Shown piece by piece: positions 16,994-55,106 of a stretch of DNA of 64,000 nucleotides; positions within the stretch are counted from its first letter, which is position 1, and the number at the start of each line of letters is the position of its first letter. The DNA is from a virus (lineage: Duplodnaviria > Caudoviricetes): positions 32,001 through 96,000 of the IMG/VR virus record IMGVR_UViG_3300029288_000081; one strand, written 5' to 3'. The notes below the pieces were generated by a model. That model did not search any database and had not been told where the DNA came from. It saw nothing but the letters and a program-made list of their open reading frames with translations. The translations under genes were made by a program, and so were the position numbers.

Positions 16994-19111
16994 TCAGCCC
17001 TTGATACACAAGATCTGCTTCAGCTGCGCCTCGATCTCGACGAGGTCCGCCTGGTTGTCCATGACCGCGTCGATGTCCTTGTAGGCGCCGGGGATCTCGT
17101 CGAGCACCCCGCTGTCCTTGCGGCACTCGACGCCCTTCGTCGCCTCGGCCAGGTCCTCGATGTTGAAGCGACGCTTGGCCTCGCCGCGCGACATGCGCCT
17201 GCCGGCACCGTGCGATGCGGAGTGGAAGCTCTCCGGGTTCCCGAGCCCCTTCACGATGTACGAGCACGTTCCCATCGAGCCCGGGATGATGCCGCGCTCG
17301 CCGAGGCGCGCCGAGATCGCCCCCTTGCGCGTGACGAGCACGTCCTCGCCGAAGTGGTGCTCCTCGCTGACGTAGTTGTGGTGACACGAGACGTGCTCCC
17401 CGAACGAGATGGTCGGGAAGTGGTGACGCAGGATGCCCGCGCAGATCCAGAGCATCACGTCGCGGTTCGACTTCGCGTACTCCTGAGCCCACATCAGGTC
17501 GTGCCTGTAGCTCGCCATCTCGGGCGTCTTCGCGAGGAAGACGGACAGGTCCTTGTCCGGCAGCTCCGCGTTGTGCGCGAGCTTCCGCGCGCGAGCGATG
17601 TGAACCTCGGCCAGGCACTTGCCGATGTTGCGCGAGCCCGAGTGCAGCATGAGCCACACGTGATCGTCTGTGTCGAGGCACAGCTCGATGAAGTGGTTGC
17701 CGCCGCCGAGCGTCCCGAGCTGCTTCTGGGCGTTGCCGAGCTTATCCTGCACGATCGGGTCGAGGTTCTTGAAGCCAGCCCAGAGCGTCGAGCGGATCGC
17801 TAGCCCGTGCGTCTCCGCATGGCTGCTGGGGCCGACGGGGATCTCCTCCTCGATCATCGACCGAAGCGACGACAGCGAGTCCGGCAGCGAGTGCGACGTC
17901 AGGTTCGTTCGCACCGCAGCCATGCCGCAGTTACCCGTCATCACGACGTTTCCGCCGCGACGCATCACCCAAAACCCCGACGGCACCGTGAAGCAATACT
18001 CGAAGCCGTCCGCACTGGGCACGTGTTCGATCGGCGTCTTGGGCGCCCCAGCGATTCCCACCATCGACTCCGCGTGACCGAACACGCGATAGTCGACATC
18101 GCCATCGCTGTCAGTGTCGGCTCGCATCACGGCTCGGCGCCCACTGGCTGCGAAGGCGTACTGGATGAAGTCGGCAGACGCACGGTCACGTGTGAAGAAT
18201 ACGTGGTCGGCGGCAGTGCCGTCCCAGTGCAGGCACTCGTCGCTGATCAGTGCGAGCTGCTGCTGCGAGGCGGCCCAAAAGTCACCATACGTCTTCGTTC
18301 TCACCGGAGCGTCGAAGACGAACGACATGACCTGCCCATCCTCGTACCGCGCGTCACGCGCGACGCTTTCACTGAAGGCGATTCCAGCTTGCACAAGCAG
18401 CTCACGCATGCGGGCCTTCTTGCGATCCTTAACGAGCTTGACGCGCACCCCACTGCCCGTGTTGGCCAGGAAGTGCCCGTCGGCCATGACCGCCACCTGC
18501 ACCCGAAGAGCCGCGTCTTCGACCGGCAGACTCGTCGTCGTCCGCGGACAGAACGCTGTCTGGAACTCCGCCTTGGCGCCGAGAACCAAGCGATCGTGCT
18601 CTGCGGCAAGATCGGAAGCGAGCATGACCATCTGCTCACGACGACGATCACGTCCAGTGATCCTCCAGCACAGCACGCGGTGGTCTGGCGAAAGCATCTG
18701 GTTCACACCGTACTTCGTGCGGAACCAAAGGAACCCGTTCGACGGTCGCTGCACGTAGGCGTCCGGCGCCACGAAGACGCCGTCGCCGGACGTTGGCTCA
18801 TACTGCATCACCAGACCACCATCATACTCGGAGATCCGTCGCCATCCGCCTGGTGACAGGTACTCCGTGTCTGCGTCAACGCAGCCGATGTCCACGCCGA
18901 CCGCAGCCGGCGACAGCGCGTCCTTCATCGCGATGACCGACCCGACCGTTGCCCCCTTGCCGAAGTGAACGTCGGGCATGACGGCCACGTGATGAAAGCA
19001 CCACGGCAGCGCCGCGATGCCCTTGAGCTGGTCGAGCGCAGACGACTCGACCTCGTGGATGGGCGTCCACAGCTTCACCGGAACGACCTTGCCCTTCATC
19101 TCGGAGATCAT
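16994..19111 (-). CDS. rtcB: RtcB RNA ligase containing an intein
   Basis: MPDVHFGKG, VGVDIG|C, LGTLGGGNHFIE, LHSGSR, HHNY, SASHGAGR, DEIPGAYKDI. Confidence 0.95.
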   Translation of the reverse strand: MISEMKGKVVPVKLWTPIHEVESSALDQLKGIAALPWCFHHVAVMPDVHFGKGATVGSVIAMKDALSPAAVGVDIGCVDADTEYLSPGGWRRISEYDGGLVMQYEPTSGDGVFVAPDAYVQRPSNGFLWFRTKYGVNQMLSPDHRVLCWRITGRDRRREQMVMLASDLAAEHDRLVLGAKAEFQTAFCPRTTTSLPVEDAALRVQVAVMADGHFLANTGSGVRVKLVKDRKKARMRELLVQAGIAFSESVARDARYEDGQVMSFVFDAPVRTKTYGDFWAASQQQLALISDECLHWDGTAADHVFFTRDRASADFIQYAFAASGRRAVMRADTDSDGDVDYRVFGHAESMVGIAGAPKTPIEHVPSADGFEYCFTVPSGFWVMRRGGNVVMTGNCGMAAVRTNLTSHSLPDSLSSLRSMIEEEIPVGPSSHAETHGLAIRSTLWAGFKNLDPIVQDKLGNAQKQLGTLGGGNHFIELCLDTDDHVWLMLHSGSRNIGKCLAEVHIARARKLAHNAELPDKDLSVFLAKTPEMASYRHDLMWAQEYAKSNRDVMLWICAGILRHHFPTISFGEHVSCHHNYVSEEHHFGEDVLVTRKGAISARLGERGIIPGSMGTCSYIVKGLGNPESFHSASHGAGRRMSRGEAKRRFNIEDLAEATKGVECRKDSGVLDEIPGAYKDIDAVMDNQADLVEIEAQLKQILCIKG
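17930..18883 (-). mobile_element. intein (318 aa) inserted immediately before the catalytic Cys of RtcB
   Basis: DIG|CVDADTEYL start, SPDHRV block B, VAVMADG degenerate LAGLIDADG, YCFTVPSG...VVMTGN|CG end. Confidence 0.92.
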
Positions 19112-19113
19112 GG

Positions 19114-19395
19114 TCAGACCACCTTCTTCAGATCGCTGATGCTCAGGTCGGGGATCAGCTTCGCGTACTCGCCCAGCTCCATGCCGTGCGGCCCGTCCTC
19201 GTGCTTCGGGCACCAGAACGCCAGGTGCGCCGGCATCGGGCGAACACCAGCGTGCTTCTCGTGCTGGTAGCTCGCGATGTCACACGAGCCCCATGGACGA
19301 CCGTGCGGGAAGGTCGAGTGCTTGCACGTGCCGCACGTCTTCACGATGCGCACGCCCTGGTCCTTCAGGACCTTGAGCTTCGTCTTGTCCGGCAT
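19114..19395 (-). CDS. small Cys/His-rich hypothetical protein
   Basis: CGTC motif; first gene of the rtcB unit, with an operator palindrome upstream. Confidence 0.65.
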   Translation of the reverse strand: MPDKTKLKVLKDQGVRIVKTCGTCKHSTFPHGRPWGSCDIASYQHEKHAGVRPMPAHLAFWCPKHEDGPHGMELGEYAKLIPDLSISDLKKVV

Positions 19396-21664: not shown

Positions 21665-22153
21665 TCAGCGGCGAACCCGGCGACGACGCCGGTTCGCGGA
21701 GATCTTGCCGCGGTTGCGCTGGCCTTCGAGCACCTTGTAGCTGAAGACCGCCGCCATGCCGCTCAGCACGTAGAGCACCGCGAGCGGCGGCATCACGTAC
21801 TGCACGAAGTAGGGCGTCGCACGCTGCGCCACCCGGTCCACCAGCGGCGTGACGACCGTCTCGTCGAGCACGTTCACGACGCGCGGCGCCTGCGTGCGAG
21901 AGAACTGGTCCGGGTTCGCGATGACCTGCGCGCCGATCTGAGCCAGGCTCGCGGCGATCTGAAGCGCCCGCTGCGTGTCGGCCATCGGCGTAGCCGGAGC
22001 CACCTGCCCGAGACCCGCGAAGGTCACGCTCGCACCGTGCTGGACCGCACGGTTCAAGCACGCTCCCTCGTCGGCCATGCCCTGGCACGCCTCGGCGTAC
22101 TGGTTCCAGTACCTCTTGTACGAGGCGGATGACCCGAGTCCCGCGTAGCTCAT
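21665..22153 (-). CDS. membrane protein with MSYAGLG leader and SAN-Arg-rich tail
   Basis: YAGLGS, FAGLGQ, C-terminal TM, KISANRRRRRVRR. Confidence 0.75.
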   Translation of the reverse strand: MSYAGLGSSASYKRYWNQYAEACQGMADEGACLNRAVQHGASVTFAGLGQVAPATPMADTQRALQIAASLAQIGAQVIANPDQFSRTQAPRVVNVLDETVVTPLVDRVAQRATPYFVQYVMPPLAVLYVLSGMAAVFSYKVLEGQRNRGKISANRRRRRVRR

Positions 22154-22563
22154 CGGCGGCTCCCGCGGCGCCGGTTCCGACGCACGCGGCGCCGATTCTT
22201 CCTGAGCGTCAGGTACGAGCCCACGCCCAGGAGCAGCGCGGCTCCGCCGGCCACTCCCCACACCCAGCCCCTGGCGTACCAGGGCGTCGCCGGGGCCTGT
22301 CCGAGCCCCCGCAACGGCACCTGGGCGTACTGGCCGTAGGGGTACGGGCCCTGCGGCTTGAAGAGGTCGCCGTAGCCGCCGAGGTAGAGCACCTGCTCGC
22401 CCCAGACGCCCTTGCCGGCCTGGTAGCCGGCGCCGGGGATCGGCGTCCGCACGCTCCGCGGGTACTGACGGAAGCGTCCGAGGCTGCCGGGAAGGTACAG
22501 CGACGGAAGATAGGGACGGACGTGCGCCGGGGCCGGGTTGACGTGCATGGTGGCAGTCATCAT
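22150..22563 (-). CDS. Gly/Tyr/Pro-rich membrane protein with GLGQ motif and Arg-rich tail
   Basis: LRGLGQ-TM-LRKNRRRVRRNRRRGSRR. Confidence 0.75.
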   Translation of the reverse strand: MMTATMHVNPAPAHVRPYLPSLYLPGSLGRFRQYPRSVRTPIPGAGYQAGKGVWGEQVLYLGGYGDLFKPQGPYPYGQYAQVPLRGLGQAPATPWYARGWVWGVAGGAALLLGVGSYLTLRKNRRRVRRNRRRGSRR

Positions 22564-31928: not shown

Positions 31929-32002
31929 TGCGTTGGGTGGGGATCGAACCCACGAATCTCCCGGGTAAGAACCGGGGGCTGTTCCAATCTAGCTTCCAAC
32001 GC
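31929..32002 (-). tRNA. tRNA-Lys(CTT)
   Basis: Loop TTCTTAC. Confidence 0.82.
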
Positions 32003-36745: not shown

Positions 36746-38932
36746 TCAGCGTCGCGACGTACGCCGCTCGGAGCGCCTGTTGCGTCGCACCCTCGTCGGC
36801 CCAGCGTTCGCCGCCAGGAGCGCGAGCGCGCCGACGGCGCCGATCCCAAGCCACGCCTGGCTCGACAGGCCCATGACGCCGGCCTCGTCGCCCATGCCGC
36901 CCAGGCCCGTCTTCGAGGTGTCCGCCAGGAGCGCAGCGAGCGGGTTCCCGATCGTGTCCCGCTCCTGGTCCGCCTTCTCTCCACCGGACGGCTCGGTCCA
37001 GGTGCCCCACTGCCGATCACAACCGCCAGCGCCGGCCCGGTAGCACGTCTCGCGCTCGCGCGACTTCGTGAGAGCCGCCTGCGCCGCCGAGCGAGCTAGC
37101 GCACGGCCCGCCGGTGTCGTCGGCTGCATGTCGCGGAGCAGTGAGACCAAGCGCTGGCCCGCCTGCACCATCGAGCCGCGGATGTTGTTGCGCTTGACCG
37201 AGTCGGAGTAGTCGGTCGCCTTGAGGTTGCCGTACTGCGAGTCGAGGTAGTTCTTTGCGATGGTCACCTCTTCCAACAGGGCCCTCGCGAGGGGCGCCTC
37301 GGCCTGCGTGTTGGCCTTGTCGATCACGACGGCCTGCTTGTACACGCTGACGAGCGGGCCGATCACCCTGTCCTGCTCGTGCGCGGCCTTGTCGTTGCCG
37401 TGGTCCTCGTTCAACGCGAAACGACCGCATCCGGTCTGGTCGTAGAGGTAGCAGAGCTTCCTGCGGATGGCAGAGAGGAGAGCCTGCTCGGTGAGAACTG
37501 CAACGGGGCGCACCAGCTTCTTGTCCCCCGAGTTCTGCGCGAGCACGAGGGCTTCGCGGAGGCACGCCGCGAGCGCTGCGCCAGCGGCAAGGATCGACTG
37601 CCGGGTGTTGTTGCGCTTCAGCGCGTCGGACCACTTGGTCGCCCTGTAGTGGTCGAACTGTCCGTCGACGTAGCCCTTCATGGCCGCACAGATGCGGAGC
37701 TTGGCGGTGATGAGCGGCTCGTACGCGGCCACCTCGCCGCGGGTAGACAGGGTCCGAGCGAAGTGTGCGTAGGCGGAGATGAGCGGCATCGTGGTGCTCG
37801 CCATCTCCTGGGCCGCCTTCACGTCAGGCTGATCTTCATCGAGCGCGAACGTGCCACACCCGGGCTCGTTCAGGAAGAACCCGCGCCACCGGTCGATCGA
37901 AGCGTTGAGCGCGGCCAGGGTGAGCTTTCCGACGGCGCGCATGCTCGTCATGCTGCCGAAGCTGTACGCGGACGCCCAGACGGTCTGGAGGCAGGCGACG
38001 AGAGTCCGCCCGTCGGCAAGGATCGACTGCCGGGTGTTGTTGCGCTTCAGCGGATCGTTGTTCGTGGCCCTGTAATGCCCCCACTGCCCGTCGATGTAGG
38101 ACTTGAGGAAGGTGCAGGGCCGCAGCATGGCGGCGAGGAACTTCTCGCCGTCGGCCTGCGCAAGAGCCCGCCTCGGGCCTCCGACCTTGGTCACCGCCTG
38201 CATGTAGGCGGCCACGAGCGGTACGATCACTCGGGCCTGCTCCTGGGCGCCCTTCGCGTCGGGCTGATCTTCGTCGAGCGCTTGGGTGCCGCAGCCGCGC
38301 TCGTTGTTGAGGAAGCAGATTCTGCGAGTGATCGCAGAGTCGAGTGCCCGCACGATCGACTGAGCGATGAGCGTCGTCGCCTGGTTGTTCGGCGACTGCA
38401 CGATCGCTTCCGCGTAGGTGGCCGCCAGCGCAGCGCCGCCGGCCAAGATCGACTGCCGGGTGTTGTTGCGCTTCACCAGATCGTTGTTCGTCGCCTTGTA
38501 CTCGTCGAACCACCCGTCGATCTGTGCGCGGGACACGTCTGCCGCGGCCTGAAGCGACGCGGCAGGATCCGTTGGGGCCCCCAGCTCCCGAGCCTGGGCC
38601 AGGCATGCGGCGATCTGCCCTTCGAGCCGCGTCATGCTCGTTCGGTCAGGCGTCGGCAGACTTCGGAGCTGGACGAGGCTCGCTCGCAGGGCATCACACT
38701 CGGCGGCCTTGGCCGCCCTGGCCACCTGCGGGTCGACGGCCGTCGGTCCGGTGGGCAGGGTGCTCTGTGCCGAGGCCGAGGACGGGCTCAGGAGCAGGTA
38801 CGCAGCTCCTCCGGCGGCAACGAGGCCGATCCCGCCCAGCACCAGCATCTTCTTCTTGGACGACGGAGCGGCGGGCGCGGCATCGTTCCGGCGCAGGCGC
38901 CGGCTGGACCTTCTCTTGAGTCGACGGGCCAT
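36746..38932 (-). CDS. 728-aa membrane protein with four ~142-aa internal repeats and Arg-rich/RRN termini
   Basis: MARRLKRRSSRRLRRN-TM ... GLGGMG-TM-VRRNRRSERR; repeat core YxAT..D.xKRNNxR. Confidence 0.8.
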   Translation of the reverse strand: MARRLKRRSSRRLRRNDAAPAAPSSKKKMLVLGGIGLVAAGGAAYLLLSPSSASAQSTLPTGPTAVDPQVARAAKAAECDALRASLVQLRSLPTPDRTSMTRLEGQIAACLAQARELGAPTDPAASLQAAADVSRAQIDGWFDEYKATNNDLVKRNNTRQSILAGGAALAATYAEAIVQSPNNQATTLIAQSIVRALDSAITRRICFLNNERGCGTQALDEDQPDAKGAQEQARVIVPLVAAYMQAVTKVGGPRRALAQADGEKFLAAMLRPCTFLKSYIDGQWGHYRATNNDPLKRNNTRQSILADGRTLVACLQTVWASAYSFGSMTSMRAVGKLTLAALNASIDRWRGFFLNEPGCGTFALDEDQPDVKAAQEMASTTMPLISAYAHFARTLSTRGEVAAYEPLITAKLRICAAMKGYVDGQFDHYRATKWSDALKRNNTRQSILAAGAALAACLREALVLAQNSGDKKLVRPVAVLTEQALLSAIRRKLCYLYDQTGCGRFALNEDHGNDKAAHEQDRVIGPLVSVYKQAVVIDKANTQAEAPLARALLEEVTIAKNYLDSQYGNLKATDYSDSVKRNNIRGSMVQAGQRLVSLLRDMQPTTPAGRALARSAAQAALTKSRERETCYRAGAGGCDRQWGTWTEPSGGEKADQERDTIGNPLAALLADTSKTGLGGMGDEAGVMGLSSQAWLGIGAVGALALLAANAGPTRVRRNRRSERRTSRR

Positions 38933-39050
38933 CACTCCCACTCCGGCGTGACGAACATGCCGCCGAACAGGGCCAGATACCCCACGGCCAAGGCGGCCAG
39001 CAAGACCAGGATCAGCATGCGGTCGAGCGTAACACGAGACGCCCCACCGG

Positions 39051-39311
39051 TCAGAGCCCCCGCCCCCCACCCAGCTTCCGGTAGTTCTGGAGGTTGAAGG
39101 GGTTGCTGTCCTGCGGGTTGCCCAGACGGCGCAGAGCCTCACACCGCTTGGCGCACTCGGGCTTGTCGCAGACGTGCGGACTGTTCCCGAAGGGTCGCGA
39201 CACTTCCTTCCCGCACCCGTCGCATGGACCAACTCGCATGAGCTGGTTGAACGGGCTGTGCTCCAGGAAGTCCGACTTCGGCCTGGTCTTGTACCCGTCT
39301 CGGACCTTCAT
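39051..39311 (-). CDS. Cys-rich hypothetical protein
   Basis: CDGC and CDKPEC motifs; ATGA overlap. Confidence 0.55.
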   Translation of the reverse strand: MKVRDGYKTRPKSDFLEHSPFNQLMRVGPCDGCGKEVSRPFGNSPHVCDKPECAKRCEALRRLGNPQDSNPFNLQNYRKLGGGRGL

Positions 39312-46233: not shown

Positions 46234-46570
46234 CCTGCCGGAGCACGTGAGCGACGAAGGCGGCAGGAGGTCGCACACTGTGCTCGCGCAGGTAGTGGCC
46301 GAATCCTTCCGGCCACACGTAGACGCCGTCGGAGTAGTCGGCGCTGCCGTTGTTCCAGATGCGACAGATGCGGCACGTAGACATGCCGCGGTACTGGTCG
46401 CCAAGGAAGCGACTGTCCGAGACGTACCTGATCACCTTGTCTCGCTCGGCCCAGTTCCAGCTCGGGTCGACGAAGGCACGCACGTCCGGGTACTTGCCAT
46501 CGTCGTTTCGCGGGTCGAGGCTCTTCCAGAATCCGACCTCGATCGGCTGTCGCCGCGCCGTGTAGCTCAT
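46220..46570 (-). CDS. hypothetical protein
   Basis: GAGG SD, ATGA overlap; 'YRGMSTCRIC...DGVYVWPEGFGHYLREH'. Confidence 0.7.
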   Translation of the reverse strand: MSYTARRQPIEVGFWKSLDPRNDDGKYPDVRAFVDPSWNWAERDKVIRYVSDSRFLGDQYRGMSTCRICRIWNNGSADYSDGVYVWPEGFGHYLREHSVRPPAAFVAHVLRQVSSR

Positions 46571-47322
46571 CGACCTCTCCGGCGGTTGCGCTTCACGTGC
46601 TTGCTCCTGCCGTAGGCCCACCAGGCGAAGGCGGCGCCAGCTCCGAGGACGGCGAGCCCAGGTACGTAGATGGGCACGGTCGTGGCCGCGCGAGCCCGAC
46701 CCGCCAACGACGGTCCTGCGACGCGCCCCTCGTCCTCGATCGTCACGAAGTCAGCAGGCCACGAGTTCGTCTGGCTCTCGGTGATGTACCAGTTGCCGTC
46801 TCGCAGGACGATGGCCGAGGACGGGTGCCGCAGCAGGTAGTTGGTCGTGACGGGCGCGTTCGCGAAGTTGGCGGCGCGCGGCACCGGGTTCGGCAGCCGG
46901 GCGGTCGCGAACTTGACGATGACCTCGCGGACCGCGGGACGAATCTCCGACCACGGCATCGTCGCTGCCCGGTCTCGAACCGCGAGCCTTCGTTCCGCGC
47001 ATTCATCCCTGCCGTGGTAGGCGCCGCCGGGACGGCACTTCGTCCCGTCGCGACGCCAGATGGGGTTCACCGGCTGACTGTGCGCCTGAACGAGCCCCTT
47101 CAGGCTGCTGCCGCGGCGCATCGCCAGGAGCTGCGCGTACGTCCACGCGGTCGCCTCGTTGTTGCCTGCCTCGTGCTGAACAGAACGGGCCAGCCACAGG
47201 AGATCGTCGGGCGTCATCTGGTACGACCAGCCGCCCTGGGTCTTGATTTGCCCAGGTGTCGGGATCGAGCTGACGTCCACCGGCTCTTCGCTCTGTCCCA
47301 GGCCCATCATCGCGTACGACAT
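46567..47322 (-). CDS. cell-wall hydrolase-like (SleB-type) membrane protein with MSYAMMGLGQ leader and VKRN-Arg tail
   Basis: 'DLLWLARSVQHEAG' catalytic Glu motif; C-terminal TM. Confidence 0.65.
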   Translation of the reverse strand: MSYAMMGLGQSEEPVDVSSIPTPGQIKTQGGWSYQMTPDDLLWLARSVQHEAGNNEATAWTYAQLLAMRRGSSLKGLVQAHSQPVNPIWRRDGTKCRPGGAYHGRDECAERRLAVRDRAATMPWSEIRPAVREVIVKFATARLPNPVPRAANFANAPVTTNYLLRHPSSAIVLRDGNWYITESQTNSWPADFVTIEDEGRVAGPSLAGRARAATTVPIYVPGLAVLGAGAAFAWWAYGRSKHVKRNRRRGR

Positions 47323-48109: not shown

Positions 48110-49320
48110 TCCGCTTCCGCTTCCAGGAAGACGAACGCCGCTTCATCCGCCTCCACGCAGAGCTGTTCGAGAAGCTCGCACGCGCCGGCCTCTCGGAGGT
48201 GGTCGGCAGCGAGACGCTGCGCAACGTCTCCAAGATCGAGCAGATGGCGCACATGGAGGGCATCCGACAGGGCCTGGCCATGGCCGCGATCGCGCGGCAG
48301 ATGAACGAGGAAGAGGCGCTGCCGATCCCTGACCCGTACGGCCAGAAGGCATTCCAGCTCCACGCGCTGATCTACGGCAGCTCGGACACACCGCTCCGCG
48401 CGATCGAGAAGGAGTGGCTCGATAAGCTCGGCCTCGATCCCGAGCACTTCGCCAAGTCCTGGCTCGACGACAAGCCCATGCGCTACGCGCCCGCGACGCT
48501 TCAGGAGCTGGATGGGACCGTGCCGCCCATCGCCCCGATGATGTCGATCCGCGCCCCCCACAAGCCCATGCCCGTGAAGCCGTCCGCTCCCGGCATGACC
48601 GACCTGATGGTCACCCCCGAAGACATCGACGACTACCTGCCTCCCTCTGAGGCCATGCACGGCGCCGAGGTGACCGTGCCCGAGCCGTGGCAGAAGGGCG
48701 AGTACGAGCCCGACGATCCCGAGCCGTTCGATACCGGCGTCGCATCCGGCTATCGGCCGCAGTCGCAAGCCGGGACGCAGTGCCACGACGTCGAAGAGAT
48801 CCGGCCCGAGAGCCCCGAGTTCCTCGACATCGTCCGAGACGCCATCCAGACGAAGAAGAGCGCCGGCTGGGACCCGAAGACCTGGCAGGACATCATCCTC
48901 GACCTGCACCGTCACATGGGCGTGGACGCGGGCTTCCTCGACATCCAGCTCACCACCCACGTCGGACGCACCGTGCTCGACCAGTGCGGCCTCGTCGGGA
49001 TGGCGCCTCCCGACATGATGAGCTTCGAGTTCCTCAGCAACCTGCCCGGCAAGAGCGGCGGCATGCTCGAAGAAGACCGTCGCACGCTCGAACGGATCGA
49101 CGAGGGCGTCACCAGTCACGACTTGTCTTCGATCACGGAGCTTGGTGAAGGGGAGGACTTCGAGTTGCTCGCCAACATCTCGCCGCCGCTCGCCGGCAAG
49201 GTGCCGTCGCCGCCGCTCATGGTGCGCAACGAGGACGGTGAGCTTCACTCCTCGCTCGGGGAGCCCGGGGAAGGGACGATGGGCTTCGGGAAGGCCCACG
49301 ACTGGGACGACGAGATCTAA
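48106..49320 (+). CDS. acidic hypothetical protein
   Basis: GTGA overlap; strong codon bias. Confidence 0.7.
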   Translation: MIRFRFQEDERRFIRLHAELFEKLARAGLSEVVGSETLRNVSKIEQMAHMEGIRQGLAMAAIARQMNEEEALPIPDPYGQKAFQLHALIYGSSDTPLRAIEKEWLDKLGLDPEHFAKSWLDDKPMRYAPATLQELDGTVPPIAPMMSIRAPHKPMPVKPSAPGMTDLMVTPEDIDDYLPPSEAMHGAEVTVPEPWQKGEYEPDDPEPFDTGVASGYRPQSQAGTQCHDVEEIRPESPEFLDIVRDAIQTKKSAGWDPKTWQDIILDLHRHMGVDAGFLDIQLTTHVGRTVLDQCGLVGMAPPDMMSFEFLSNLPGKSGGMLEEDRRTLERIDEGVTSHDLSSITELGEGEDFELLANISPPLAGKVPSPPLMVRNEDGELHSSLGEPGEGTMGFGKAHDWDDEI

Positions 49321-49988
49321 CTCCGATGCCTGTTCCGGCGCACAGGACGCCGCAGGAGCCACCAGAGCAGCCCGAGGGTACCGATGGCGCCAGCGGCGGC
49401 GAGAGCCAGCCTACCGGCGCCCTCGGGAGGGCCCAGGGAGGCTCCGCCTCCACCTCCCCCGGTGACGGGCGCGATGGACGTAGGTGGGGCGCCGGCCAGG
49501 AAGCGCTGCACGGCGGTCGCCATCGCGCTGCCCCACGGGGCTGCGCCGGTGGGGGTGAAGTGGGGATTGGTGGGGCTCGCCCTGGGAAGATTCAGCGGTG
49601 TGACCGGGTAGGCGTCGATGTAACGGTCCCCGAAGATACGTGCGTTCATGGACCGCAGCGCGTCCCCTTCCGCGTGGTCACGCGCGGTCGGGTACTGCGG
49701 TGGACCGCTCATCAGCACCGGAGGAGCCACGTCCATCTTCATCTTGCGAAGCGCCGCCTCCGTTGCTGGAGTCGCCAGGGAGTTGTGGCCGAAGATCAGC
49801 AGGACAACGTCGGCACCCCTCGCGGCCTGTGTGTACTGATCCCAGTAGGGGGCTCGCGTCTGCACGATCGGAGACTTGCTGTCGTTGTGGACTACCGTGA
49901 CCGAGTGGCCGGCGGCAACGAGGGCTCGCTTCGCCGCGTTGCCTGGAGTCCCGGCTTGAGAGTCGCCCCAGATGAGAACCTTCGCCAT
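49317..49988 (-). CDS. SGNH/GDSL-like esterase with C-terminal TM and VRRN-Arg tail
   Basis: LIWGDSQ, FGHN, 'PHFTPTG'; TACCAT-7-ATG. Confidence 0.75.
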   Translation of the reverse strand: MAKVLIWGDSQAGTPGNAAKRALVAAGHSVTVVHNDSKSPIVQTRAPYWDQYTQAARGADVVLLIFGHNSLATPATEAALRKMKMDVAPPVLMSGPPQYPTARDHAEGDALRSMNARIFGDRYIDAYPVTPLNLPRASPTNPHFTPTGAAPWGSAMATAVQRFLAGAPPTSIAPVTGGGGGGASLGPPEGAGRLALAAAGAIGTLGLLWWLLRRPVRRNRHRS

Positions 49989-50036
49989 GCCCCCGATGGT
50001 AGCGCGACGCGCCGATCGGTGGGAGGGGAGTGGTAG

Positions 50037-50459
50037 ATGTCCAAGACCTCGGTCCAACTCGCTGCCGTCGAAGCAGAACTCGCGAAGATCCAGGCGGAGT
50101 ATGACGGCCTGAGCGGTGCGCTCGGAGACCCGGCCATCACCACATGGATCGCCGACATGGGTCGAGCGGCCCCGCGGAAGCTCTCCACGTTCGAGGCCGC
50201 CACCGTGAAGCGGATCGCGAGCCTGGAGCCCAAGCTCGACAAGCTCGAAGACCAGCGAGACGACCTTCGAGCAGAGCTGATCTGCGAGCTGGCCGGCATC
50301 CCAACCGACAGCGACATCCAGGACCCCGAAACCCTCCTGCGTGCCGCCCTCGTCGTGCTCAACCGAGCCCACAAGGCAGGGCAGTCGACCATCGAGGGGC
50401 GGACGGTCATGCGAGCGTTGATCGACTACCTCAAGAGCCTCGCTGCGGACGACGAGTAG
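50037..50459 (+). CDS. coiled-coil hypothetical protein
   Basis: GGAG SD. Confidence 0.7.
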   Translation: MSKTSVQLAAVEAELAKIQAEYDGLSGALGDPAITTWIADMGRAAPRKLSTFEAATVKRIASLEPKLDKLEDQRDDLRAELICELAGIPTDSDIQDPETLLRAALVVLNRAHKAGQSTIEGRTVMRALIDYLKSLAADDE

Positions 50460-50801
50460 CTAGTCGCCTGCCTGCCGCAGAACGTGCATACGCGGCTGAC
50501 CGTCGGTGTCTGCAACGGTCAAGCAAGCTCCGGCTGACATGCGGCTCATGACACCTGGCGCGTCAGCCCGAAACGCAGCGACGCTCACCGTCTCGTGGTC
50601 GCCTCTTGCGTCCCAGAGGTCGGGCCAGGAGCGCTCCGACTCGCGCTCGACCACTTCGCGCTCCTCATCGGTGAGCGTCTCGTAGAGATCTTCGAGGCTC
50701 CCGAGCGCAGCTCGATCGTCCTCTGGCTTCCAGCCTGGCTGACGCCGAGCTTCACGCAGGTCATCCACGAGCTGCTGGTAGATGGCGAGCGGAGAGTTCA
50801 C
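50460..50801 (-). CDS. hypothetical protein with Phd/YefM-like C-terminus
   Basis: 'ETVSVAAFRADAPGVMSR' resembles the Phd N-terminal motif. Confidence 0.4.
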   Translation of the reverse strand: MNSPLAIYQQLVDDLREARRQPGWKPEDDRAALGSLEDLYETLTDEEREVVERESERSWPDLWDARGDHETVSVAAFRADAPGVMSRMSAGACLTVADTDGQPRMHVLRQAGD

Positions 50802-52678
50802 GGGCCGAGCCTCCGCGGACGCACGCTCTTGCCCTGGCACGCCACGCACTGGACGTCCTTGCTGTCGTACTTGATCGTCCTGCCGAACACCGTCTTGGCG
50901 ATCGCATCGGCACGTCGTTCGACGCCCGCCGGCAGGCGCTGCCCGAGCATCTTCCCGAGATTGTTGCCGTAGCGGTAGTCGAGCGCGTGCCCGAACTCGT
51001 GTGCCATCAGGCCGCGGATGTTCGCGACCGGCAGGTCCTCGGTCTTCGCGGCGAAGGCGACGCGGATGGGGCTACCGTCCATGCAGTAGCCGAACTGCCG
51101 CTCGGAGCCGTGGCCGTTGTCGCCGCCGGCCTTCTCGTCGTGGTGCAGTTCCAGGTCGCCGAAGTCGGGGAACTGCTCGACGAGCGCGTCGAAGCACTCG
51201 TCGAAGGCGGCGCGGACCTTGATCATGGAGTGGCCGTTCGGCGCCAGCCCTGCTTTCGCTCTCGCCTCCATCTTCGTCAGCCGCGTGTAGTAGTCGGGGA
51301 ACTCGCGCAGGTGGTCCATGGCGATCTTGCCGGCCTCGCGCATGTCGCCCGTGTGCTCCTGCTCGACCTCGATTCCCATGCGCAGCTCGTCCATGTCGAC
51401 CGTCGGAGATCCGAGGTCACGCCAGACGGTGAGCGTCTGCCGTTCGGTGGGCTTCATAGCGCTCTCCTGAGTGTGCAGCGTCGGAACGCGACCGTTTGGA
51501 GTCCACAGCTCTCCCGACGCACCCGTTGAACCGAGGACAGGCTCTGGCAAAGTCTTGCCGTCGATAGCGATCACTTCAACCGGCGAGTGGGCGAGCATCG
51601 ACACTTCTGACTGGTCGGTCCCGTAGTACATGAACGACGTGAATCCAAACTCCCAGTCCACGTCTTCCGGTTGCACGACAGCCGTCAGAACGACCTCGCG
51701 CTCGTCCTCGCCAACCGTCTTGTTGTAGACGCCAGCGCCACGCCGGTCGTACGACCAGGACTTCCCCAGCTTATCGAAGCGGATCTTCTCGTGAGACGGC
51801 ACGGACACGGCTCGGTGGACCTCGATGCTACCGTTGCGCCATGCCTTCTGAGCAAAGCCAGCATACTCGGAGGCCCTATCTTCCAGGGTCTCCCTGTCGT
51901 CGTCCCAGTCCAAATCGTTCACGTATCGCTTCGCCCACCCGACAGCGGCTGATTCGCTGCTCAGGAACGCGGGGAACTTCGCGCGCTTTGCGACGCGTCC
52001 CGAGTTCGACGCCATCGTGATCGGCTTCATGACGAACGCGTCTCGGAGGCTACCGTGCCCGAAGTCGATGATGACCGGCCGCTTGCCGGACGCGTACCCA
52101 AGGTTGCCGTGGTGCAGGTCGACGACCTCGACCCCGCGCCACGAGAGCCACTTCACGCCATCGCGGATCTGACGAACGAAGGCTACAGACTCCTCGCTGG
52201 GGAGAAGGGCTTCCTCGCTCGGGTGAAGTACCGCCTCCTGAAGCAGGCGAGCGCGAGGGCCAGCCAGCGTCCTGCTCAGGTTCGTCTTGTTGGCGGTGGT
52301 GACCGGCTCCATCACGATGGCGAACAGGGGGCGTGACCTGTGGACGTCCGTCTCGTCTTCGTAGACGTCCCCGGGCAGACGGTGCACCGAGCGGACGTAC
52401 GGCAAGCCGGTGGGTGCGGTCCCCGTCTTCTTGACGTAGTCGAAGATCATCTTGCAGACGCGCGCGTCCTCTTCGTCGTCGGTGACCTTGAGCACGTCTC
52501 CGCTCGGCAACGCGAAGGCGTGGGCGTAGTGTCCCAGGCCGAGCTGCTTCAGCGGCAGCGTCCGCCCGTCTTCGCTGTGTAGGCCGAGGCTCGCGAGGAA
52601 GTTCGGGGCGCGCAGCAGCGTCGCCTCGATGTCTTCGATGGTCGCACGGTTGGCGGTGAGGCTGACGATCTTGGGCAC
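50798..52678 (-). CDS. polyvalent protein: kinase, unknown domain, DUF5661-like domain, zincin peptidase
   Basis: LGLGHY/VLKVT/DLHHGN/IDFG; 'MGIEVEQEH...IAMDHLREFPDYY'; AHEFGH...ERRAD. Confidence 0.8.
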   Translation of the reverse strand: MPKIVSLTANRATIEDIEATLLRAPNFLASLGLHSEDGRTLPLKQLGLGHYAHAFALPSGDVLKVTDDEEDARVCKMIFDYVKKTGTAPTGLPYVRSVHRLPGDVYEDETDVHRSRPLFAIVMEPVTTANKTNLSRTLAGPRARLLQEAVLHPSEEALLPSEESVAFVRQIRDGVKWLSWRGVEVVDLHHGNLGYASGKRPVIIDFGHGSLRDAFVMKPITMASNSGRVAKRAKFPAFLSSESAAVGWAKRYVNDLDWDDDRETLEDRASEYAGFAQKAWRNGSIEVHRAVSVPSHEKIRFDKLGKSWSYDRRGAGVYNKTVGEDEREVVLTAVVQPEDVDWEFGFTSFMYYGTDQSEVSMLAHSPVEVIAIDGKTLPEPVLGSTGASGELWTPNGRVPTLHTQESAMKPTERQTLTVWRDLGSPTVDMDELRMGIEVEQEHTGDMREAGKIAMDHLREFPDYYTRLTKMEARAKAGLAPNGHSMIKVRAAFDECFDALVEQFPDFGDLELHHDEKAGGDNGHGSERQFGYCMDGSPIRVAFAAKTEDLPVANIRGLMAHEFGHALDYRYGNNLGKMLGQRLPAGVERRADAIAKTVFGRTIKYDSKDVQCVACQGKSVRPRRLGP

Positions 52679-53380: not shown

Positions 53381-53841
53381 GTCCCCGCTTTCGTGGCTTC
53401 ATTCTCTCGGAGCGTGGCCAGTGCGCGATCTCCTGCTGCGAGAGCGGGCCCCGCAGACGTGCGAGCCGCCTCCATCGCGTCGAGCGCGCCCGCCACGAAG
53501 TGCTCCGACCTCTTCAGGAACTCCGCACGCACCATCAGCGTCGTCTCGCGAAGTGGGGTGACCGTGGCCACGACGGCCGCTTTCGACTGCGAGGTCATCG
53601 CCATCACCACGTCGATCAGCATTCCCGTCGGAGTCTGCAACTCGTGAAAGAAGAGTCCCCAGGTTCCGCGCCGACGTTCCAGAACGATGTATGCGACCGA
53701 GACGCTGGCACTCCGAGGCGGCATCGACATCGAGAACTCGACCGGGTCTTGGCGAGCACGCTCTGCAAGAGCTGCTTCGATTGCCGCGACTCGATCGGCT
53801 ACCTGCTGAGCAACCGTGACCAGATGAACTTCTTCCGACAT
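53377..53841 (-). CDS. hypothetical protein
   Basis: TGATG coupling. Confidence 0.55.
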   Translation of the reverse strand: MSEEVHLVTVAQQVADRVAAIEAALAERARQDPVEFSMSMPPRSASVSVAYIVLERRRGTWGLFFHELQTPTGMLIDVVMAMTSQSKAAVVATVTPLRETTLMVRAEFLKRSEHFVAGALDAMEAARTSAGPALAAGDRALATLRENEATKAGT

Positions 53842-55106
53842 CAGCGCCTCGCTCGACAGAGAACACAGATCGACCGCAGCTCGTTGTGGGGACACGAGGG
53901 TGGGCGCGGCGGGGTGACGAGCTTCACGTTGGGGTCCGCCCAGTGCAGCCGCTTCGACGGGTCGCCCGGAAGCGGACCGGTCATGAACATGCCGTCGAGC
54001 TTCGGCTCGGCGATTGCTGCCAGGTAGCCCTCGGTCTGCGTGTGGGCGAACGACGCTTCGAGCTGCTCGACGACACCGGGGCCGGTCAGAGCGGGCAGAG
54101 GTGCGTCAGAGACCTCGACCTTGAACATCTGCCTCGGTCCCTCCTGGTGCGGGACCCCGAGAGCGTCGAGCGTTTCGAGGATGCCCTCGCCGACCGGGAT
54201 CGGCTTCGTTCCGAGCTGACCAGCATGGTCAGCGAAGACGTCCCAGGCCTTCTCGCGCACCTCGGCCGGAGCGTTCGGGTCGAACACGTCCTCGGGGTCG
54301 AGGACGGGCTCTTCGCCCTGCTCGCGCAGGGCCTGCGCGGCCTCGGCGGCGCCGCTGGGCAGGTCTCGCTCTGCGATGCCTCCGGACTCGGCCATCGAGC
54401 GTCTGTCTTCGTCGGTGGGCGGCGAGATGGCAGCAGTCTTCTTCGCACGCGTCTTCTTCGGCGGCGGCTCGGGCTCCGTCGGAGACTCGGGGGCGGTCTG
54501 CGAGATCTCCATGGCGGACGCGACCACCGCGGCATCGTTGCCCCAGCTCGTCCACTCGGGACGCAGGGACCTCGCGAAGAACTCGACGTACGGACCCTGG
54601 GAGCGAGACTCGATCATGTCGTAAAAGACCTTCGGCTTCGCCGAGTGCTTCCGCTTGCCGTTCTCCATCTCGTGCTCGGCCTCGATGGAATCGCCATCGG
54701 GGAAGTAACTGTCGCCGTCCGCCTCGTCCGTGTCGAGCGCGCTCTCGATGTCGTTGGGAGCCGTCCTCACCGCCCAGCCACGACCGATCGTGCCGAACAG
54801 GAGCAGCTCGTGCTTGCCGCGGAAGTACCGGCCGATTCCCGGACGCTTCTTCGTCCACGCGACGTTCGTGATGTACCGAACGCCCAGCTCGTTCAGAAGC
54901 CATAGGCCGTCGGGCAAGAAGTTGTTCGTCACCCAGCAGTACACGTGCGCGTTCTCGCCCGGCGTCCACAGTCCCGATGCGCGAATCACACCGGGCATGG
55001 CCGTCGTCTTCAGCAGGTCATAGTGCCTCTGCGCGCCCCGCTTGATCTTGCCTGCGCCGCGCTCTTCCCACGGAGGGTCAAGTAGAGATGTCTTCCAGAT
55101 GATCAT
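53841..55106 (-). CDS. MT-A70 family N6-adenine methyltransferase with long acidic C-terminal extension
   Basis: DPPW, WVTN, RGKHELLLFG, HSAKP, EFFAR..WGN. Confidence 0.9.
   Translation of the reverse strand: MIIWKTSLLDPPWEERGAGKIKRGAQRHYDLLKTTAMPGVIRASGLWTPGENAHVYCWVTNNFLPDGLWLLNELGVRYITNVAWTKKRPGIGRYFRGKHELLLFGTIGRGWAVRTAPNDIESALDTDEADGDSYFPDGDSIEAEHEMENGKRKHSAKPKVFYDMIESRSQGPYVEFFARSLRPEWTSWGNDAAVVASAMEISQTAPESPTEPEPPPKKTRAKKTAAISPPTDEDRRSMAESGGIAERDLPSGAAEAAQALREQGEEPVLDPEDVFDPNAPAEVREKAWDVFADHAGQLGTKPIPVGEGILETLDALGVPHQEGPRQMFKVEVSDAPLPALTGPGVVEQLEASFAHTQTEGYLAAIAEPKLDGMFMTGPLPGDPSKRLHWADPNVKLVTPPRPPSCPHNELRSICVLCRARR

Follow-up and report, generated by a model that had tools for sequence, protein, structure and literature searches.

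Shuffled effector modules joined at a hydrophobic-x-x-Asn motif, a possible cleavage site, in a predicted polyvalent protein of an uncultured bacterial virus

One gene in the window, which is the 64,000-nucleotide stretch of viral DNA analysed here (positions 32,001 to 96,000 of IMG/VR record IMGVR_UViG_3300029288_000081), encodes a 626-residue protein that is best explained as a polyvalent effector polyprotein, with predicted kinase, ADP-ribosyltransferase (ART), DUF5661 and zincin modules. Ahead of each module lies a short stretch of disordered sequence with the motif hydrophobic-x-x-Asn (φ-x-x-N, the hydrophobic residue being L, M, V or I and once W). Comparison of homologues strongly supports this motif as a conserved junction signal, and the best explanation for it is proteolytic cutting at the Asn, to which we give a probability of about one in two.

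The gene (Table 1) belongs to the 171-kb genome of an uncultured bacterial virus and lies outside the presumed late block. Its start codon is GTG, followed by a Pro codon (M-PKIVSLTAN), its GC3 is 0.86 and a contig of 171,440 bp on record encodes an identical protein. BLASTN and TBLASTN searches with the gene and its protein gave no match among 50,697 phage records. There was also no PHROGs match for the protein and few matches when 40 further large ORFs from this genome were searched, and for this reason its capsid and protease genes could not be named. With PHROGs mostly blank, the virus is very divergent.

Table 1. Coordinates of the gene, its modules and motif copies, and its downstream neighbour (positions in the window).
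Feature	Positions	Strand	Basis or remark
Whole ORF	50798..52678	-	626 aa plus stop
N-terminal leader, aa 1-10, MPKIVSLTAN, motif copy 1 at its end	52649..52678	-	pLDDT, conservation
Domain 1, aa 11-221, protein-kinase-like	52016..52648	-	Foldseek, invariant residues
Motif copy 2, MASN, aa 222-225, kinase-to-ART joint	52004..52015	-	pLDDT, conservation
Domain 2, aa 226-391, putative minimal ADP-ribosyltransferase fold	51506..52003	-	AF2, VIA-align, conserved residues
Motif copy 3, WTPN, aa 392-395, ART-to-DUF5661 joint	51494..51505	-	atypical copy
Domain 3 region, aa 396-477, four-helix DUF5661	51248..51493	-	Pfam PF18905 match aa 427-473
Motif copy 4, LAPN, aa 478-481, DUF5661-to-zincin joint	51236..51247	-	between helices, conserved N481
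Domain 4, aa 482-626, zincin-type metallopeptidase domain	50801..51235	-	invariant columns, fold pattern
Downstream syntenic neighbour, SGNH-like (weak)	49317..50372	-	match below Pfam cut-off

Domain 1 has the hallmarks of the protein kinase-like superfamily, namely a Gly-rich loop (G47xG49xxA52), the β3 Lys (K64), D187-x4-N192 and D205-F-G, all invariant in 30 homologues, together with a kinase fold. It has no Pfam match, and a Foldseek search returned PKR, MAPKs and others (E-value about 1e-4, probability 1.00). The domain, best explained as a truncated kinase of the Ser/Thr type, consists of the N-lobe and catalytic core without the C-terminal subdomain, ending approximately 15 residues past the DFG.

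Domain 2, listed in the earlier note as an unknown domain of ~165 residues, can now be assigned from fold lists and its R-S-E residues as a putative minimal ADP-ribosyltransferase fold of the R-S-E type. As the full-length AlphaFold2 (AF2) model, built on a shallow alignment, left this domain unfolded, it was modelled separately, with a pLDDT of 87.6. R289 on strand 1, S309 on strand 2 and Q356-x-E358 lie on the strands expected for R-S-E ARTs, the R, S and E being invariant or nearly so in 28 sequences. ART-fold proteins and toxins form the large majority of the best 50 VIA-align rows, yet with Z-scores of at most 5.1. Foldseek gave no match at E <= 1e-3 (all E > 0.3) and there was no Pfam ART match. 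Many relatives of this domain are stand-alone proteins of ~180 aa.

DUF5661 (PF18905) is the sole Pfam match of the protein, scoring 59.2 bits against a cut-off of 27 (E-value 5e-16), and the helices of domain 3 (residues 412-475) are modelled with a pLDDT of about 90. Domain 4 possesses the zincin motif HEFGH (residues 560-564; 50987-51001) and a downstream Glu (E587), both invariant, as well as conserved C532, C611 and C614 and a C-terminal RPRRLG; its model shows strands, then the HExxH helix and the Glu helix. Neither Pfam nor a profile search of PDB sequences gave a match for this domain, and an Atlas lead to Peptidase_U49/M78/M48 (0.89) was sub-threshold. In distant relatives the zincin is a stand-alone protein of ~180 aa.

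The product thus unites at least two disparate activities in one viral polypeptide (predicted kinase, ART, DUF5661 and zincin), which is the mark of a polyvalent protein. Background given in the earlier note, that such proteins combine kinase, ART and zincin domains and are proposed to be delivered early in infection, agrees with Iyer, Burroughs, Anand, de Souza and Aravind (Iyer et al., 2017; PMC5512222), and that paper also proposes processing by the zincin domain and delivery with DNA. Shared with those proteins are the presence of disparate effector enzymes in one chain and extensive module shuffling between relatives, and the kinase without a C-lobe resembles polyvalent kinases lacking the C-terminal subdomain described in the same paper. 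However, two modules differ. For the zincin family MPTase-PolyVal (PF18818), neither the protein nor a six-frame search of the genome gave a match at E <= 1. The putative ART is of the R-S-E type, and R-S-E ARTs of the Alt/VIP2 clade are stated in that paper to be absent from genuine polyvalent proteins, whose ARTs are of the Tox-ART-HYD2 clade. Term searches of PMC5512222 gave no conserved junction signature.

The motif had been noted at four positions of the protein, one per boundary, and its coordinates prove exact. Among 15 Asn residues, [LMIVW]xxN sites occur only at N10, N225, N395 and N481, one in each leader or inter-domain segment, with LTAN occupying residues 7-10 (52649-52660, minus strand). 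Their number is ordinary, since shuffling of the protein yields about the same count (3.56 +/- 1.62), while their placement is non-random. Leader and linker residues, delimited from AlphaFold2 confidence, secondary structure and homology ends, amount to 64 (10%) and hold all four sites (P = 1e-4; P = 3e-6 for one in each). The expectation that the motifs lie in disordered linkers was borne out by the AF2 models, where they occupy low-confidence, non-regular segments. Residues 1-9 have a pLDDT below 50, helix one beginning at residue 14, as do residues 220-227 around MASN in the domain 2 model, and LAPN sits between helices 463-475 and 486-502 in a block of pLDDT 63. A helix N-cap role for the Asn was rejected, as helices begin 4-17 residues past it.

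In alignable homologues or HSPs, N10 is kept in 95%, N225 in 82% and N481 in 89% (119 HSPs), compared with 95% for the catalytic N192 and 0-49% of HSPs for other Asn residues. In these alignments, N10, N225 and N481 are conserved like catalytic residues, N225 being invariant in alignment A2. WTPN is atypical, as domain 2 itself ends in this conserved W, W is near-absent from the hydrophobic position elsewhere and N395 is kept in only 32%. The pattern W-x-P-N also precedes Arg-rich tails in the stand-alone relatives P0176 and P0164. As for the residue following the Asn, it is R at the first site and then S, G and G, so the small residue earlier reported after the internal copies is present here; across the family, P is commonest (39%), followed by G (23%), A (13%), R (8%) and S (5%).

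Modules are shuffled, lost or stand-alone among 186 homologues. A search for rearranged homologues retaining the motif, proposed in the earlier note, was answered, for example, by P0003, which has the order kinase-DUF5661-ART-zincin with the motif at each joint. The motif lies within 12 residues of 229 of 317 homology junctions, which were defined independently of it, against 55 +/- 7 at random positions. The density of homology breaks within 5 residues of φ-x-x-N is 5.1 times uniform across the 186 homologues, with control values of 1.06 for other Asn residues and 0.74-0.94 for φ-x-x-(D/Q/S/G/T/E). In cleavage-site numbering, P4 is L (.54), M (.21), V (.15) or I (.09) and P1 is N. Conservation is confined to P4 and P1; P3, P2 and the flanking residues vary and the joint codons differ synonymously, so that selection on two residues, not shared descent, is indicated. 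Because related viruses retain the signature though they exchange the modules, it probably serves as a cutting signal. Seven related viral contigs share the locus in synteny, with differing module sets. Where the zincin is not C-terminal, LKAN, LRAN or LKPN comes next, and where it is C-terminal no Asn follows.

Use of the motif is not confined to this family. φ-x-x-N is enriched in the genome, with z of 3.2-3.6 for two blocks. It is likewise found ahead of Arg-rich tails on other proteins encoded there, 13/22 sites with an Asn plus an Arg run having a hydrophobic residue at -3. The downstream neighbour, for instance, ends in a hydrophobic helix and then VRRN-RHRS, a motif with a basic tail, and this tail is an indirect hint that packaging and delivery might occur.

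φ-x-x-N is a portable protein-level junction signal common to the whole family. Most likely it is recognised by a virus-encoded endopeptidase which would cut at the Asn, removing the N-terminal leader and freeing the four modules as separate proteins, possibly to be packaged and delivered. Consistent with cutting, the motif is present where there is nothing to link, in MxxN leaders with N at position 4 (29/186 proteins). There are two candidate cutters. One is the zincin of the polyprotein itself, which could act in cis or trans. The other is a transglutaminase-like Cys-His-Asp protein encoded at genome positions 143491-144141 and conserved in 8/8 complete related genomes tested. Its assignment (P0188) was made from the C...H...D pattern and an Atlas score of 0.97, a comparison with PDB sequences giving a spurious repeat match only. 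Both candidates are present in every related genome tested, including G006 in which the motif is not enriched. Enzyme presence therefore does not track the motif, and choosing the protease by presence or absence of the two was abandoned.

Two difficulties attend the cutting explanation. Pro is next to the Asn in 39% of sites, and to our knowledge few endopeptidases cut an X-Pro bond. The other is that no Asn-specific protease was recognisable in the genome, HMM searches of which gave no match to C13 (legumain), C5 (adenain), S77, S78, Transglut_core, MPTase-PolyVal or the HK97 capsid. For C13 (PF01650) there was no match at E <= 1, with the control positive in Caulobacter, whereas the S77 (prohead protease) control was positive in no genome; an adenain/Ulp1-like protease was likewise not found by this search. 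Natural proteins ending in Asn, considered as a footprint of cleavage, showed no excess in the family or the genome. The literature searched yielded nothing relevant on Asn-directed cutting within phage virions, and no published account of the motif was found. The position of the gene outside the presumed late block also counts against cutting. A more specific form of the explanation, offered tentatively as possible rather than probable, is that φ-x-x-N is the cleavage code of an undescribed Asn-directed maturation endopeptidase in a lineage of uncultured bacterial viruses of 130-180 kb, the protein being a true polyprotein. This endopeptidase would be either the conserved zincin, whose S1' or S1 pocket would take up the Asn, or else the transglutaminase-like Cys-His-Asp protein. 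Four products would result (kinase, ADP-ribosyltransferase, DUF5661 protein and protease), and the conserved PKIVSL...AAAGLxPN spacer may be a peptide for targeting or exosite binding that can be removed.

The motif could instead be a short linear motif that is never cut and serves docking or sorting (particle loading, chaperone or scaffold binding) on a single polyvalent chain. A binding motif would have the same conservation pattern, the Pro-rich surroundings and frequent N-P are easier to reconcile with docking than with a scissile bond, and the lack of natural C-termini at Asn favours it too. N4 vRNAP, ArdC and TraC1 are transferred uncleaved, according to PMC5512222. Left unexplained, however, are the four-residue MxxN leaders and the exact placement at each joint between modules, even on either side of a conserved 20-aa spacer, and docking is considered rather unlikely. 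That the motif is functionless in itself, being a linker inherited with the modules or a DNA-level recombination joint, would fit with modules clearly being exchanged at these points. It is nevertheless improbable, as P4 and P1 alone are constrained, with free variation at P3, P2 and in the flanks, and as the same two-residue rule is found on unrelated Arg-tailed proteins. Four variable codons are too few for homologous recombination, and their synonymous variation led to the rejection of the DNA-level joint.

N-P is the classic self-cleaving pair, and with the Asn the sole invariant residue and Pro the commonest next, the chain might cut itself by Asn cyclisation (succinimide) at N-P or N-G without a protease, as in FlhB/EscU NPTH, reovirus mu1 N42-P43 and autotransporters. 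Known cases need a folded, straining turn with fixed downstream residues, whereas the sites here are in low-pLDDT, non-regular linkers, where the neighbouring residues vary and neither T-H nor any comparable context is conserved. Moreover, the hydrophobic P4 has no role in the chemistry and N-G would deamidate rather than cut, making self-cleavage quite improbable. Covalent modification of the Asn, by cross-linking or deamidation through a transglutaminase-like enzyme or by N-glycosylation, could draw on the Cys-His-Asp protein found in 8/8 genomes and on several glycosyltransferases encoded in the window. Transglutaminases, however, use Gln and not Asn. N-glycosylation was set aside because no clear N-x-S/T sequon emerges: at the second residue past the Asn the commonest are R, G, A and S, each with.15-.17, and T is outside the first seven. 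As boundary placement is also left unexplained, modification is very improbable.

Cutting at the Asn would have parallels in known viral processing systems. T4 IPI-III and Alt carry a capsid-targeting leader which is trimmed by the prohead protease gp21 at (L/I)xE. Common to T4 and the proteins studied here are a short N-terminal leader with a hydrophobic residue at a set distance from P1, an ADP-ribosyltransferase (a putative one here) as actual or possible cargo and a single site rule across many unrelated virus proteins. T4, in contrast, has Glu at P1 and the hydrophobic residue at P3, in place of Asn and P4, and the sites here are also internal, between modules; an S77-type protease and HK97-type capsid were not detected, with the limit on the S77 control given above. 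Adenovirus protease sites are (M/I/L)XGG-X or (M/I/L)XGX-G, and ASFV pp220 and pp62 are cut at GG-X. These likewise use a hydrophobic P4 and a fixed small or polar P1 as a virus-wide code, and ASFV is a precedent for dsDNA-virus polyproteins cut into several mature proteins, although P1 is Asn here and the predicted products are enzymes rather than core or shell proteins. In legumain (C13), FlhB/EscU NPTH and reovirus mu1 it is Asn that defines the scissile position and N-P is frequent, but no C13 match was found here and the folded context of Asn self-cleavage is absent.

Polyvalent phage proteins are predicted to be processed, and no processing signal has so far been defined for them. Here two residues, a hydrophobic one at P4 and Asn at P1, are enough to mark nearly three quarters of all module junctions across more than 170 proteins. 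If this rule is a cleavage code, it would represent a new viral protease specificity, would make the boundaries of mature effectors predictable from sequence alone for a large set of uncultured viruses and would provide a natural toolkit of portable, cuttable linkers. In these viruses, new effector combinations evolve by the swapping of self-contained, site-flanked cassettes at one syntenic locus.

Longer zincin ORFs on distant contigs (L021, L024, L037), considered as motif-free fusions, look like spurious upstream extensions. Longer leaders in homologues follow the pattern (M or MxxN)-PKIVSL...AAAGLxPN. Of 67 occurrences of the PK[ILV]V spacer, 13 come after the initiator Met and 40 after an Asn. 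In the relative L017, an Arg-rich tag is followed by LVQN-PKIVGFS-LMPN and then the zincin.

The polyprotein ORF, of coding-type composition (GC3 0.86), contains four hydrophobic-x-x-Asn (phi-x-x-N) tetrapeptides, LTAN, MASN, WTPN and LAPN, ending at N10, N225, N395 and N481, exactly where the earlier note had put them. Their number is ordinary but their placement is not. Of the 15 Asn residues, only four are preceded at -3 by L, M, I, V or W, with 3.56 ± 1.62 such sites expected in the shuffled polyprotein. Leader and linker segments were delimited independently of the motif, using AlphaFold2 confidence, secondary structure and homology ends, and each of the four segments holds one of the four sites (chance of 4/4 in linkers, P = 1e-4; of one in each, P = 3e-6). 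LTAN lies within the N-terminal segment of pLDDT <50, ahead of the first helix; MASN in an inter-domain stretch of pLDDT <50 in the model of domain 2; and LAPN in the coil separating helix 463-475 from helix 486-502 (block pLDDT 63). WTPN is located past the last strand of domain 2, where model confidence falls off, its W being the nearly invariant final residue of that domain, stand-alone relatives included. The proposal that the motif sits at each domain boundary, with AlphaFold as the check for linkers, is thus borne out.

Coordinates of the polyprotein, its leader and linkers, and associated genes
Feature	Position	Strand	Remarks
Polyprotein ORF	window 50798-52678	-	626 aa; GTG start, Pro as next codon
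Leader/linker segments of polyprotein	aa 1-13; aa 221-235; aa 386-411; aa 476-485		10% of chain
SGNH-like downstream gene	window 49317-50372	-	weak match: E 0.013, below Pfam cut-off
MT-A70-type methyltransferase	window 53841-55106	-	upstream of polyprotein, same strand; long acidic, Pro-rich C-terminal extension
Proteins with hydrophobic-x-x-N + Arg-run C-termini	window 36746-39232, 21665-22261, 46567-47322, 63097-63999	all -	LLAAN..., ISAN-RRRRRVRR, VKRN-RRRGR, MQPN-RRRSG...
P0188, transglutaminase-like protein	genome 143491-144141 (L006:3491-4141, a block of this genome)	+	216 aa; C...H...D pattern (DCDD, HTHVF, LDP)

Domain 1 (aa 11-221) folds as a protein kinase, with Foldseek matches to PKR, ERK and JNK (E about 1e-4, prob 1.00) and an invariant GxGxxA loop, K64, D187-x4-N192 and D205-F-G. 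It ends soon after DFG and therefore lacks the C-terminal subdomain, as do the kinases of polyvalent proteins according to the description in PMC5512222. Domain 2 (aa 226-391), modelled alone, gives a confident fold (pLDDT 87.6), and the label "unknown" probably does not hold for it, as its nearest structures are almost all of the ADP-ribosyltransferase (ART) fold, though with weak scores (Z ≤ 5.1): TreX, IcmQ, CARDS, diphtheria, pertussis, LT, Arr, PltA, scabin, PARPs and DarT. Its conserved R289, S309 and Q356-x-E358 are each on the expected strand, and R289/S309/E358 appear to be the signature of an R-S-E type ART. Domain 3 is DUF5661 (E 5e-16), a four-helix unit. In domain 4 (aa 482-626), HEFGH (560-564) and E587 are invariant and lie on two consecutive helices behind a small sheet, a predicted Glu-zincin layout; Pfam and PDB sequence profiles, MPTase-PolyVal included, gave no match to it. 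The polyprotein belongs to the polyvalent-protein class as a previously undescribed member, and no description of an Asn junction code was found in the literature searched.

Two database searches yielded 186 relatives, in which the modules are shuffled, duplicated, dropped, encoded singly or joined to further effectors (ART-PolyVal, GNAT, Arr). Homologues with shuffled domains that keep the motif do exist: P0003 has the order kinase-DUF5661-ART-zincin, every joint bearing it. In an all-against-all comparison, homology breaks within 5 residues of phi-x-x-N were 5.1 times as dense as uniform, compared with 1.06 for other Asn and 0.74-0.94 for phi-x-x-(D/Q/S/G/T/E). Likewise, 229 of 317 junctions, called blind to the motif in 172 proteins, have phi-x-x-N within 12 residues (55 ± 7 at random positions), and no control pattern exceeded expectation. 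The sites have L (.54), M (.21), V (.15) or I (.09) at P4, predominantly A at P3 and P or A at P2, N at P1, and P (.39), G (.23), A (.13), R (.08) or S (.05) at P1'. Alignable homologues retain N10 in 95%, N225 in 82% and N481 in 89%, similar to catalytic N192 (95%), but N395 in only 32%, other Asn being at 0-49%. Joints differ in synonymous codons and vary at P3/P2, so selection is on two protein residues and not on DNA. Among multidomain proteins more distantly related to the ART module (P0150, P0187, P0147, P0154), the joints are basic-x-x-N-P (RRGN-P, RRDN-P, RRKN-P). Since these joints keep N-P but lack the hydrophobic P4, the signal may have N-P as its older core.

Several observations argue that the motif is not a mere spacer. 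It is also present where there is nothing to link, as four-residue N-terminal leaders: Asn occupies position 4 in 29 of the 186 proteins (MRRN, MTPN, MRSN and similar), with 1-9 at adjacent positions. An internal zincin is followed by LKAN, LRAN or LKPN, while a C-terminal one runs to the chain end without Asn. A conserved spacer, PK(I/L)V...AAAGLxPN, has Asn at both ends, and among its 67 copies the Pro follows the initiator Met in 13 and Asn in 40, the remainder mostly following a GTG start that is probably mis-called. Removal of Met and cleavage at Asn would therefore expose an identical N-terminus. In a late-block ORF (genome 162554-163429, +), M-PKIVGT occurs at residue 14, and this Met may be the true start, which would give another PKIV-initial protein.

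The most likely reading, given a probability of about 0.5, is that the motif is a protease recognition site cut at Asn, which would make this a true polyprotein. Such cutting would resemble that of T4 capsid-targeting leaders by gp21, and the code would resemble those of adenovirus and ASFV; it also agrees with the processing of polyvalent proteins proposed in PMC5512222. Counting against it are Pro at P1' in 39% of sites, a C13 (PF01650) profile search of the genome that detected no Asn-specific protease family, and no excess of natural C-termini ending in Asn in the family and genome. An uncleaved docking or sorting signal is rather unlikely, and the remaining readings are less probable still.

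If the motif is cut, one candidate enzyme would be the zincin domain of the polyprotein itself. Zincins usually select P1', and Asn would then be the new N-terminus; the Met/Asn equivalence is compatible with a cut on either side. The other candidate is P0188, a Cys-His-Asp protein whose Atlas features give 0.97 to viral transglutaminase-like/BTLCP clusters and which has relatives in all eight complete related viral genomes examined. Neither is preferred, because both also occur in related genomes G006, without motif enrichment, and G007, with weak motif use.

The window (32001-96000 of a complete IMG/VR virus record of 171,466 bp) has a G+C content of 65%. In this genome phi-x-x-N is enriched in two blocks (z 3.2 and 3.6). 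Sites combining Asn with an Arg run have a hydrophobic residue at -3 in 13 of 22 cases, among them the SGNH-like gene, whose product ends in a hydrophobic helix and VRRN-RHRS, an Asn motif with a basic tail. On a related contig, the protein of L017:2776-3447 (+) runs from an N-terminal Arg/Ser/Thr-rich tag through LVQN-PKIVGFS-LMPN to a zincin, so that arginine-tag grammar and polyvalent-family spacer occur together in a single protein. Synteny of the locus extends to seven related viral contigs, where the SGNH-like gene adjoins the zincin gene downstream; the methylase is syntenic upstream in two (L014, L015). The module sets at this locus nevertheless differ, being kinase-zincin, DUF5661-zincin, DUF5661-kinase-zincin, zincin with other modules after it, and zincin alone. 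In relatives further removed (25-32% identity), the zincin is present only as a separate protein of about 180 aa, which makes the fused, motif-jointed architecture a trait of this clade. The window also has about 30 tRNA genes, and a 739-aa ORF adjoining the tRNA cluster (window 16994-19213, -) matches a PhoH-like ATPase over aa 109-437 and RtcB tRNA ligase over aa 429-739.
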